The notes under the pieces are model-generated. The model saw only the letters and a program-made list of their open reading frames with translations. It had not been told where the DNA came from and searched no databases. Positions 39,065 through 40,914 of a DNA stretch of 64,000 nucleotides are shown piece by piece; the first letter of the stretch is position 1; each line of letters begins with the position of its first letter. The DNA is from Gammaproteobacteria bacterium (lineage in GTDB: Bacteria > Pseudomonadota > Gammaproteobacteria > Steroidobacterales > Rariloculaceae): contig DASWKF010000103.1 in assembly GCA_036396795.1 (NCBI GenBank), forward strand, positions 4,170 to 68,169, in the 5' to 3' direction. Made by a program: the position numbers and the translations under genes.

Positions 39065-39577
39065 ATGCTCGATACAGCAGAACTCGACACCACTTTGGTG
39101 GGAATCAGAACGGCGACATTGATGCTGCCGTTTCTCGGCGCGGCCGTCGCTAGCGATATCTTGCACCGACGTATTCCGAATATCTTGGTCGCGCTGATGC
39201 TTGCTTGCGGCCTAGCGGTCCACCTGGCATCGCTCGACGACGCCGGAAGTGCCCTGCTGGCGAGCGGGAGCGGGGCAGCCGTGGGCTTTTTGATCCTGCT
39301 GCCTTTCTATGCGCTCGGGGGCATGGGAGCCGGCGACGTAAAATTGCTTGCCGCAGTAGGAAGCTTTTTCGGGCCTTCCGGCGCGTTGCTTGCCGGCATC
39401 TTCACTTTGGTCGCCGGCGCTCTGCTCGGCCTGGCGGTGATTGCATGCCGGTACCTGAGGGCTTCGGCCCTCAGCCGTTGCTCGATCGCGGCTTCTCCGC
39501 CGGAGATTGCATCTGAACAGCTGCCCTATTCGGTCGCCATTTCCCTGGGAACGCTTGCCGCGGTGATGCAATGGTAG
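39065..39577 (+). CDS. tadV: Prepilin peptidase, TadV/CpaA type (A24 family, no methyltransferase domain)
   Basis: Both catalytic Asp contexts are present: ASDILHRRIPN and GMGAGDVKLLAAVG. 170 aa and polytopic. Confidence 0.85.
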   Translation: MLDTAELDTTLVGIRTATLMLPFLGAAVASDILHRRIPNILVALMLACGLAVHLASLDDAGSALLASGSGAAVGFLILLPFYALGGMGAGDVKLLAAVGSFFGPSGALLAGIFTLVAGALLGLAVIACRYLRASALSRCSIAASPPEIASEQLPYSVAISLGTLAAVMQW

Positions 39578-40914
39578 CCCATCCCTCCGATTCTTCGCGC
39601 ATCGAGATCGAGCTCGACGCCCACCTCGCGCGTCTCGCTCCCCGGCCTCAGTCTCTCGAAGACACCGGCTTGACTCAAAGCTTCGTCGCGGATCTCGTCG
39701 CGAAGCAACTGCTGGAAGGAGGCACGCTCACCCTGACGGAGCTCGTGCAGCGTCTGGCTCTCTCCGGAAAGATCCTCGAGTCGGTGCTGCATTTCATGCG
39801 GCAGGAAGCGCGTATCGAGGTCACGCCGGCACGAGACTCGAGCTCCGCTCTGCGCTACCGCTTGACCGACAGAGGTCGCGCGAGTGCGTCGGACGCTCTC
39901 CTGCGCAGCAGCTATGTCGGCTTTGCGCCCGTGCCTTTGCATGCCTACGCGGAAATCGTGCGAGCACAGACGGTGCACGAGCGCTCGATTACGAAAAGCA
40001 CGATGCGGGCGGCCTTCGAAGAGGTGGTGCTCCAGGAAGGCCTTCTCGATCGGCTCGGACCATCATTGAACTCGGGCCGGCCGATCTTCATCTATGGGCC
40101 CGCGGGAACGGGCAAGACCTTTATCGCGCAGAAGCTCACTCGATTGTTTCACGATCGAGTGCTGATCCCCCATGCGATAAGCATTAACGAGACCGTCGTC
40201 GGTGTTTTCGATCCTGTCGCGCATCGCGTTGCCGTGCCCACGGCTTCCAAGCCCGACTTGAGCTTGGATACTGGCTACGATCCGCGATTCGTCTGCTGCG
40301 CACGACCCGTCGTGATCGCGGGCGGTGAATTGACGGTCGACATGCTCGAGATCCAGTACGACCAGGCGACGAGGGAGTACCGTGCACCGCTGCAGCTCAA
40401 GGCGAACAACGGACTGTTCCTCATCGATGACATGGGGCGGCAGAAGGTTCCTCCCGCGGCAATTTTCAACCGCTGGATCGTCCCGATGGAGGACAAGAAG
40501 GATTACCTGAGCCTCGGTGGCGGCCGGCATTTCAGCGTCCCATTCGACGTGGTGCTGATCTTCTCCACGAACATGCATCCGCTCGATCTAGCCGACGACG
40601 CTTTCCTGCGCCGCATCGGATACAAGATCGGGTTCGAATACCTGAGCAAGGATCAGTATCGAAAGATCTGGCAGGACGCTTGTCGAGAGCACGGCGTCGT
40701 GTTCGATCCGGAGGCGCTGGAGTTCGTTCTGACGGAGCTGCATGAGAGAGAGTCCGTGCCGTTGCTGCCCTGCCATCCGAGAGACCTGCTCGGCATCGCT
40801 GTAGATCTGACCGTTTATCTCGGCCAGCCGAGACGGTTGACCAAGCAACAGTTGCGCTGGGCCTGGAGGAATTACTTTGTCTCATTCAAAGACGCCGACA
40901 GCGCTGGCGCCTGA
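39571..40914 (+). CDS. AAA+ ATPase of unknown function with ~170-aa N-terminal (possibly winged-helix-like) domain
   Basis: Walker A IFIYGPAGTGKTFIAQKL, Walker B LFLIDDMGRQ, sensor-1-like VLIFSTN and an Arg-rich AFLRRIGYKI. The start overlaps the tadV stop by 7 nt. No GAFTGA (so not a sigma-54 activator) and no secretion-ATPase Asp/His boxes. Confidence 0.8.
   Translation: MVAHPSDSSRIEIELDAHLARLAPRPQSLEDTGLTQSFVADLVAKQLLEGGTLTLTELVQRLALSGKILESVLHFMRQEARIEVTPARDSSSALRYRLTDRGRASASDALLRSSYVGFAPVPLHAYAEIVRAQTVHERSITKSTMRAAFEEVVLQEGLLDRLGPSLNSGRPIFIYGPAGTGKTFIAQKLTRLFHDRVLIPHAISINETVVGVFDPVAHRVAVPTASKPDLSLDTGYDPRFVCCARPVVIAGGELTVDMLEIQYDQATREYRAPLQLKANNGLFLIDDMGRQKVPPAAIFNRWIVPMEDKKDYLSLGGGRHFSVPFDVVLIFSTNMHPLDLADDAFLRRIGYKIGFEYLSKDQYRKIWQDACREHGVVFDPEALEFVLTELHERESVPLLPCHPRDLLGIAVDLTVYLGQPRRLTKQQLRWAWRNYFVSFKDADSAGA

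Follow-up and report, generated by a model that had tools for sequence, protein, structure and literature searches.

The window analysed here, a 64-kb stretch of a gammaproteobacterial contig (DASWKF010000103.1), carries a complete Tad/Flp pilus locus in which the prepilin peptidase gene tadV and the gene cpaB are separated by a gene for an AAA+ ATPase. The gene (39571..40914, + strand) has an ATG start and encodes a 447-residue protein in which a MarR-like winged helix-turn-helix (wHTH) domain precedes an AAA+ module. It is a conserved accessory gene of one widespread Tad subtype, present in alpha-, beta- and gammaproteobacteria, and by sequence search its product belongs to a large uncharacterised AAA+ family, hundreds of 50%-identity clusters in size, that lies outside all Pfam and NCBIfam models. 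This placement is carried by the architecture of the protein, its conserved catalytic residues, the close packing of its gene within the operon and the linkage to tad genes across genomes. The AAA+ fold and an accessory role in Tad systems are known kinds of finding; what is new is an uncharacterised family with an apparently repurposed MarR fold.

The reading frame is a real gene and no chance open reading frame (ORF), given 6809 homologues at E ≤ 1e-3 by sequence search and an identical 447-residue protein already in the sequence record (P0001). Its ATG at 39571 lies 7 nt within the 3' end of tadV, whose TAG stop occupies 39575-39577 (junction sequence ATGGTAG), and the GTG start of cpaB at 40945 comes 30 nt past its own stop at 40914; the length, overlap and spacing stated in an earlier sequence-only reading of this DNA were all verified. 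No alternative in-frame start preserves the conserved N-terminus, and the nearest one, a TTG at codon 34, is disfavoured because the near-invariant residues P26 and G33 would be lost.

Linkage to tad genes is strong. In 55 reference-genome loci, including ones from Pseudomonas, Stutzerimonas, Azotobacter and from metagenome-assembled genomes of Woeseiaceae, Steroidobacteraceae and Rhodospirillaceae, the order TadV-AAA-CpaB followed by the remaining Tad genes was found in every locus long enough to judge. We widened the sample with 80 metagenome loci found with the family alignment and counted those with at least 3 kb of flank. A core tad gene was present in all 62 loci whose protein is at least 48% identical to that of the window, in 6 of 6 at 44-48% identity and in 7 of 8 at 42-44%, falling to 1 of 8 at 40-42% and 5 of 22 below 40%. 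Burkholderia, Paraburkholderia and Rhizobium etli nonetheless keep the linkage, although their proteins share no more than 36-40% identity with that of the window. Plasmids pBPJTT of B. pyrrocinia and pPT70 of P. terrae (40% identity) retain the TadV-AAA-CpaB order within the series Flp (two or three copies), prepilin peptidase, "ATP-binding protein", CpaB, secretin, TadG, TadE, TadZ, CpaF and TadB, and on plasmid p42e of R. etli CFN42 (37% identity) CpaF, TadB and TadC are followed by an "ATPase AAA". In a neighbour-joining tree the Tad-linked members fall into at least three or four clades interleaved with orphan clades. Two of these clades have the order TadV-AAA-CpaB and two TadB-TadC-AAA, and in one locus the AAA+ gene stands immediately before CpaF.

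Of 78 loci with tadV directly upstream, 72 have the AAA+ start no more than 50 nt from the tadV stop, with a median spacing of 12.5 nt and 11 overlaps; the median gap to cpaB on the other side is 9 nt. Co-transcription with the tad genes is therefore predicted from the spacing to be conserved, and the literal overlap appears to be particular to the window. The coupling to tadV and cpaB proposed from the sequence alone thus stands as tight spacing across loci, but not as a shared start/stop junction.

Conservation within the protein was judged from a 71-sequence alignment of the family at 31-51% identity. Walker A (GPAGTGKT, residues 176-183; 40096..40119, +) has invariant G176, G179, G181 and K182. 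Walker B (LFLIDD, residues 282-287; 40414..40431, +) has an acidic pair but not the canonical catalytic Glu of hhhhDE, the usual Asp-Glu being replaced by an Asp-Asp in which D286 and D287 are both invariant, as is G289 further along the motif LFLIDDMGRQ. The sensor-1 residue Asn334 in LIFSTN (40570..40572, +) and the candidate arginine fingers R347 and R348 in FLRR (40609..40614, +) are kept in at least 90% of the sequences, the arginines also in the Burkholderia and Rhizobium homologues, and K352 of FLRRIGYKI is equally conserved. All four motifs singled out by the earlier reader (GPAGTGKT, LFLIDDMGRQ, LIFSTN and FLRRIGYKI) are thus present and coincide with conserved positions.

An AlphaFold2 model of the full-length protein, made with a diverse alignment, was obtained with a predicted local distance difference test score (pLDDT) of 93.6 and a predicted template modelling score (pTM) of 0.90. 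It contains a single AAA+ core, as had been read from the letters, and Foldseek matches agree. The modelled order is a helical and winged N-domain to residue ~135, a linker, the AAA+ alpha/beta core, a beta-rich insert, a pre-sensor-1 hairpin and a five-helix lid. Among the features of the AAA+ superfamily, the protein has Walker A, a sensor-1 Asn, candidate arginine fingers and an alpha/beta core plus helical lid. The linker (Y-x-G-P-A-P-V-P-L-x-x-Y, residues 115-126; 39913..39948, +) joins the wHTH to the AAA+ module; its P120 is invariant, and Y115, G117, V121 and Y126 are kept in at least 90% of the sequences.

Two elaborations of the core stand out in the model. The beta-rich insert, about 75 residues long (residues ~201-277; 40171..40401, +), lies between beta2 and Walker B and opens with a beta-hairpin straight after beta2, the helix-2-insert position. 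Its modelled strands cover residues 202-205, 208-211, 240-244, 247-250, 262-264 and 269-271, and it bears the motif D-x-R-W-x-x-C-x-R-P...GGEL; H218, D237, R239 and P246 are invariant, and D214, R245, G251 and E253 are conserved in at least 90%. The pre-sensor-1 beta-hairpin (residues 310-324; 40498..40542, +), a feature of the Lon, RuvB, MCM, BchI, MoxR and NtrC clades, is formed by strands 310-314 and 320-324 between helix 295-308 and the sensor-1 strand 328-333, with G318 and P324 invariant. The all-helical lid (residues ~360-446; 40648..40908, +) consists of helices 360-373, 380-394, 401-416, 425-435 and 439-446.

Foldseek matched the full model to 856 chains of the PDB at E ≤ 0.001, and the 50 best listed are AAA+ proteins, barring the top match 8P49 (E ~1e-13, TM 0.45-0.62, ~395-425 aligned columns). 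8P49 is a cryo-EM hexamer of the uncharacterised Pyrococcus furiosus protein Q8U0N8. It resembles the window protein in its ring-forming AAA+-like core, its flexible N-terminal domain and its lack of a Pfam assignment, but it is archaeal, only 13-14% identical, has no known link to pili and is absent among the 60 PDB profile matches listed. The runners-up were the ATPase domain of archaeal LonB, BchI, RuvB, dynein, MCM, CbbX and proteasomal ATPases. LonB (4ZPX, 3K1J), RuvB, BchI, MCM and dynein/midasin share the pre-sensor-1 hairpin and an extra hairpin after beta2; in contrast to this group, the window protein comes without a protease domain or membrane anchor and has neither a RuvA-type nor a VWA partner, and it combines the Asp-Asp Walker B with an insert that has invariant residues of its own. 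In sequence and profile searches of the PDB the leading matches were midasin and classic AAA proteins (E=4.5e-6 and 7e-19 for midasin AAA modules), confined to the surroundings of Walker A and the second region of homology.

Existing profile collections do not capture the family. Pfam gave only sub-threshold P-loop matches (AAA_16, AAA_22, AAA_5, AAA_7 and bpMoxR), with AAA_5 reaching 19.3 of the 22 bits required, along 26 residues, and AAA_22 reaching 21.2 of 27 bits, along 30 residues (170-199). NCBIfam, PADLOC and PHROGs returned only short or P-loop-level matches, with no NCBIfam model above its cut-off. Defence-system and phage identities were rejected on the same grounds: the PADLOC and PHROGs matches are short or limited to the P-loop (~25 residues for the defence ATPases), and IteA scored 20.8 bits against a cut-off of 510. 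An exhaustive HMMER search of 1.84 billion representatives recovered 3081 clusters at 50% identity with E ≤ 1e-3, of which 667 reached E ≤ 1e-30, and the wHTH and ATPase parts form one conserved unit, because the matches span residues ~22-438 even at 33-36% identity. Members are annotated elsewhere as "AAA family ATPase", "ATP-binding protein", "hypothetical protein" or "predicted ATPase with chaperone activity". Open-access full texts yielded no functional description of the protein, in agreement with the earlier statement that no role in Tad biogenesis is known for it; the one pairing of "AAA family ATPase" with CpaB/CpaC in that literature is an unannotated Vibrio gene list and could mean TadZ. 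No characterised family could thus be assigned and the tad linkage is strongly conserved, so neither of the findings that the sequence-only reading had named as counting against it was made.

That reading had also held the protein to be no TadA/PilB-type ATPase, no TadZ/ParA and no sigma-54 activator, which the searches bear out: T2SSE, CbiA/ParA, TadZ_N and Sigma54_activat gave no Pfam match at E ≤ 0.01, and GAFTGA is absent from its sequence. It is neither TadA nor TadZ, since the locus holds both as genes of their own. Like it, TadA/CpaF and TadZ/CpaE are cytoplasmic P-loop NTPases encoded in the same operon, but they have a RecA-like (PilT/VirB11-type) or a deviant Walker A ParA (ParA/MinD-type) fold rather than an AAA+ fold. 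ExeA/GspA and MshM are likewise non-motor accessory ATPases of type IV filament systems, but the window protein matches AAA_22 only below threshold and has no membrane or peptidoglycan-binding part. An ExeA-like identity was rejected on these domain grounds and because a true AAA_22 gene exists in the locus. Enhancer-binding proteins and FleQ/VpsR offer a looser parallel, with optional input domains, an AAA+ module with loop inserts and a helix-turn-helix (HTH), and some of them control adhesion or biofilm genes; their HTH, however, is C-terminal and Fis-type, whereas that of the window protein is N-terminal and MarR-like and GAFTGA is lacking.

The N-terminal domain has a fold that is already known. 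Its winged helix (residues ~28-112; 39652..39906, +) is rounded off to a MarR-like fold by helices 7-22 and 123-133. Modelled separately (pLDDT 89.6) and compared with the PDB by Foldseek, the N-terminal 140 residues had MarR family proteins as 50 of their 50 top matches (E 6e-5 to 6e-4, TM ~0.45-0.53), and the profile of the domain matched nine distinct MarR sequences at E ≤ 1e-4, 2rdp at E=9.5e-7 among them. No Pfam MarR or HTH model matched at E ≤ 0.01. By these models and profiles the domain is a complete yet divergent MarR-type winged helix, with the same fold, flanking helices included, as the regulators ZitR, AbfR, OhrR and E. coli MarR. The winged-helix likeness noticed by eye is thereby confirmed, but the description of the domain as novel does not hold; its only newness, as far as sequence models go, is that it escapes every one in Pfam.

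In other respects the domain does not look like a functional MarR DNA reader. We mapped it onto the MarR DNA contacts by hidden Markov model alignment with MarR proteins of the PDB; the contact positions are those equivalent by this alignment and by what is established for the family. V68 and V69, aligned to the recognition helix, are ~90% hydrophobic across the family, whose sequences have acidic residues in 34-52% of cases at positions 70, 71 and 74. The tip of the wing (residues 86-93) is rich in Gly, Ser and Ala, with no conserved basic residue and no MarR basic motif, and residues 28-112 have a mean net charge of -1.0. In contrast to the MarR regulators, therefore, the domain is fused to an ATPase, has hydrophobic or acidic contact positions, lacks a basic wing and is net negative. 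Its composition, though an indirect argument, shifts the weight towards a protein-binding role.

Among 26 non-Tad loci, clustering of the neighbours revealed no shared neighbour family, and sampled neighbours include UvrD, LigA, QueG and a carboxyltransferase; with such housekeeping neighbours and no shared family, no alternative conserved system emerges for the orphans. On one metagenome contig (L118) two convergent copies of the family (2326-3591, +, and 3770-4990, -; 40% and 38% identity) lie with no tad genes nearby. Some relatives carry a further domain in front of the wHTH-AAA+ module, namely FHA (P0152, P0178 and P0193) or HDOD (P0263), and the N-terminal extensions of some orphans hold one or two copies of a 24-residue MshEN-like motif. 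MshEN is a c-di-GMP-binding motif as defined in PMC5013675. A loosened form of the first 21 positions of the published motif occurs in 6 of 150 representatives (P0176, P0191, P0139, P0186, P0205 and P0224), the published relaxed motif in P0191 only and the strict motif in none, and Pfam T2SSE_N was not detected in the ~45-residue N-terminal extensions of some relatives. Because P0191 alone fits the relaxed motif and none fits the strict one, c-di-GMP input is just a lead. All FHA, HDOD and MshEN-like members with readable context lie outside Tad loci. That these domains front the same module in orphans suggests that the wHTH-AAA+ unit may be a general signal-controlled ATPase output, one branch of which would have been recruited into Tad operons.

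We tentatively favour, at somewhat less than even confidence, a ring-shaped ATPase of the cytoplasm whose N-domain would bind a Tad partner for the ring to remodel or switch. The soluble protein would form a ring, probably a hexamer like 8P49, with the MarR-like domains on top acting as partner-binding modules that do not read DNA. By binding and hydrolysing ATP the ring would remodel a cytoplasmic face of the Tad machine or change its state; the TadA/CpaF motor, TadZ, the cytoplasmic loops of TadB/TadC and the TadV-prepilin step all come into question as partners. A more specific version appears to us possible but doubtful: the protein would be a third working ATPase of a distinct Tad subtype, an AAA+ ring docked through its MarR-like domains on the TadA-TadB/C-TadZ motor or on the TadV-prepilin step and using ATP to reset, disassemble or gate it (for example in control of an extension/retraction switch or in pilin recycling), and orphans with FHA, HDOD or MshEN-like domains would deliver the same output under phosphorylation or c-di-GMP control.

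Several points weigh against this reading. Nearly all characterised MarR-fold domains bind DNA, and the composition of the N-domain leaves room for a non-canonical DNA contact. An Asp-Asp Walker B suits a slow switch more than a processive motor; the sensor-2 arginine is unconserved (HPRD in the window becomes FPAD or YPGD in Burkholderia-group homologues), and no GYVG-type aromatic pore loop was recognised by eye, which weakens the case for a threading unfoldase. Taken together, these three features make a switch or gate likelier than a processive unfoldase. Below ~42% identity most relatives lack tad neighbours and sit among housekeeping genes, and the ancestral function therefore need not concern pili. 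Well-studied Tad systems, moreover, operate without the protein, which hence is no core part: no such gene appears in the canonical list of Tad components or in the flp-1 cluster of Sinorhizobium meliloti (PMC10934763).

Of the other explanations, the one that we take most seriously, while holding it unlikely, is an ATP-dependent transcription regulator whose MarR-like domain would sit on flp/tad promoters and whose AAA+ oligomerisation would control expression, comparable to the sigma-54-independent action of FleQ/VpsR. It draws on the full MarR fold, seen in both structure and profile in a family of DNA-binding regulators, on the signalling input domains (FHA, HDOD and MshEN-like motifs) of relatives, on a Walker B compatible with a switch and on the orphans, whose unrelated neighbours would suit a general regulator. 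Yet hydrophobic or acidic residues occupy the recognition-helix equivalents, no basic residue is conserved in the wing and the net charge of the domain is negative; neither GAFTGA nor a Sigma54_activat match is present; the locus already has a dedicated AraC-type response regulator; and a gene amid structural genes, with ~10-nt spacers and in two independent gene orders, would be unusual for a regulator. We consider improbable a MoxR- or ExeA-like chaperone for folding, inserting or assembling a TadG-type minor pilin, the CpaC secretin or CpaB. An AAA-type ATPase that aids secretin assembly has a precedent in ExeA/GspA, the gene adjoins cpaB/cpaC, midasin modules head the PDB sequence matches, AAA_5, AAA_7 and bpMoxR appear below threshold, and BchI and dynein are structural neighbours. 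However, the MoxR-type Pfam scores are all below cut-off and limited to the P-loop, and the protein, in which neither a membrane segment nor a peptidoglycan-binding domain nor any periplasmic part could be detected, would have no direct access to the secretin. No VWA domain was found among the scanned locus proteins, TadG included; a genuine AAA_22 ATPase of the ExeA/MshM type is already encoded at 53857-54735; and the gene's place in R. etli and other clades is after tadC, at a distance from cpaB/cpaC.

An equally low probability attaches to a function unrelated to pili, in which a general proteostasis or nucleic-acid AAA+ protein, or one serving a mobile island, travels with the Tad genes. 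Many relatives at or below 41% identity lie beside UvrD, LigA, QueG and similar genes, and the 10 kb around them contain no tad genes; Tad loci can move horizontally, a 70-kb plasmid with an integrase and an Abi toxin being one carrier; and there are weak P-loop matches to defence ATPases. These matches, however, are far under their cut-offs, and hitch-hiking is disfavoured because it would not keep the gene inside the operon across three proteobacterial classes (alpha, beta and gamma), at identities as low as 36-40% and in no fewer than two gene orders. Least probable of all, to a degree that leaves it little room, is a DNA-handling motor for pilus-dependent DNA uptake, a ring translocase or helicase like RuvB, MCM or ComM. 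In its favour, RuvB and MCM turn up among the structural neighbours, a wHTH domain is present, and some members are annotated "predicted ATPase with chaperone activity", which we take to be the name of COG0606 (ComM/YifB). Flp-pilus-dependent transformation has been reported (PMC4322843). Against this, the likeness to RuvB and MCM goes no further than the general AAA+ fold (TM 0.3-0.4), the Mg_chelatase/ComM Pfam model does not match the window protein, the composition of the N-domain is unfavourable to DNA binding, and no competence genes were seen among the scanned locus proteins.

A possible lead comes from Burkholderia cenocepacia J2315, in which BCAS0299 is flp and BCAS0301 a leader peptidase. 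These positions match the gene order of B. pyrrocinia, and by synteny BCAS0302 is the presumed orthologue of the window protein. BCAS0302, annotated "hypothetical protein", acquired the substitution C249F among clonal isolates of one patient with cystic fibrosis, and the change was scored deleterious (PMC4658001); no further mention of the gene was found in open-access papers. Residue 249 of the B. pyrrocinia homologue (locus L146, 8908-10308) is the conserved Cys of the insert motif D-x-R-W-x-x-C-x-R-P, C243 in the window protein, so C249F would hit this Cys in the presumed orthologue, a lead and not proof.

The remainder of the locus in the window is that of a full Tad system. The flp pilin gene (37373..37540, -) encodes 55 residues, MKKSIINFLRDERG/LTTVEY..., with a G-XXXX-EY processing motif and a hydrophobic stretch. 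It was located by a loosened regular expression, its 55 codons being too few for the list of ORFs of at least 60 residues, and is transcribed away from the regulator-tad operon. Equivalent flp ORFs lie upstream of tadV in loci L001, L003 and L005, and an annotated Flp_Fap gene holds the same place in L140; L001 shares the divergent orientation seen in the window, whereas Pseudomonas-type loci have flp co-directional with tadV. The AraC-type response regulator (38021..38848, +) combines a receiver (Response_reg E=2.6e-8) with HTH_18 (E=9.4e-24). A homologue lies upstream of most related loci, on the tad-operon strand in the window and L001 and divergent in the Pseudomonas, Stutzerimonas and Woeseiaceae loci (L003-L055 compared), and no sensor kinase was identified among the scanned locus proteins.

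The operon itself runs on the + strand from tadV (39065..39577; Peptidase_A24 E=1.5e-16) through the AAA+ gene to cpaB/rcpC (40945..41751; RcpC E=1.3e-29, TIGR03177 E=1.8e-65) and the secretin gene cpaC/rcpA (41817..43403; Secretin E=5.7e-34, T2SS-T3SS_pil_N E=1.1e-21). Next comes a gene for a 103-residue protein with no Pfam match (43400..43711), weak homologues of which occupy the same position in L001, L003, L011, L062, L064 and L090. It is followed by a tadG-like gene (43725..45005; Tad E=1.1e-10, Tad_C E=7e-5) and genes for two TadE-like pseudopilins. The frame of the first pseudopilin (45013..45483; TadE E=2.5e-12) opens at 44872, but its start is likely the ATG at 45013, past the tadG stop; the second lies at 45485..45943 (TadE E=2.5e-9). 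The cytoplasmic and platform genes are tadZ/cpaE of the ParA/MinD type (45968..47143; CbiA E=1.8e-7, TadZ_N E=9.4e-5), the motor ATPase gene tadA/cpaF (47161..48552; T2SSE E=5.4e-67), tadB (48531..49535; T2SSF E=2.6e-19) and tadC (49545..50510; T2SSF E=8.7e-21). A TPR protein that is TadD-like by position (50529..51497; TPR_1 E=1.7e-31) has homologues after tadC in 19 loci.

Two genes whose products have no Pfam match (51487-53004 and 53012-53845, +) then precede the second accessory ATPase, of ExeA/GspA/MshM type (53857-54735, +; AAA_22 E=9.7e-26, 91.1 bits), which adjoins a Sel1-repeat protein (54741-55475, +) at the end of the locus. This pair is reminiscent of MshM/MshN of MSHA pili; the Burkholderia and Paraburkholderia loci lack it, and elsewhere it gave only one weak match (L049). 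On the other flank, an ICMT/PEMT-family membrane methyltransferase gene (36697-37299, -; ICMT E=1.3e-6) adjoins flp; an enzyme of this kind has no Tad-related role known to us. Homologues occur in 16 related loci (for example L083 2946-3350, L084 11300-11869, L086 1953-2531, L097 9334-9909 and L149 3143-3841), directly beside the AAA+ gene in the TadC-AAA clade and between tadV and the AAA+ gene in L097. The P. terrae copy, near the end of its locus, is annotated isoprenylcysteine carboxylmethyltransferase family protein, and right after the Tad locus on that plasmid stands a separate gene annotated as a MarR family transcriptional regulator (L149 4402-4887), a curious neighbour in view of the MarR-like domain of the AAA+ protein. 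At lower coordinates in the window than the methyltransferase gene, the adjacent ORFs 35347-35982 and 35933-36676 (+; 211 and 247 residues) look paralogous by eye, sharing the stretches C-E-x-x-V-C-L-R-D-x-L-E-x-L-V-x-L and R-F-P-G-x-x-L-M.

Tad (Flp, type IVc) pili enable many bacteria to adhere, to form biofilms and to colonise hosts. The accepted inventory of the system names two cytoplasmic NTPases, TadA/CpaF and TadZ, and the gating of assembly, together with extension and retraction by one motor, is under study. The family defined here, hundreds of 50%-identity clusters that Pfam and NCBIfam leave uncovered, joins an AAA+ module to a MarR fold that appears stripped of its DNA-contact residues. 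Its in-operon carriers include Burkholderia (by synteny B. cenocepacia, BCAS0302), Rhizobium, Sinorhizobium, Pseudomonas, Stutzerimonas, Azotobacter and many uncultured lineages, and in these bacteria a third in-operon ATPase would be a genetically testable candidate for the questions of how Tad pili are gated and how their dynamics are controlled.

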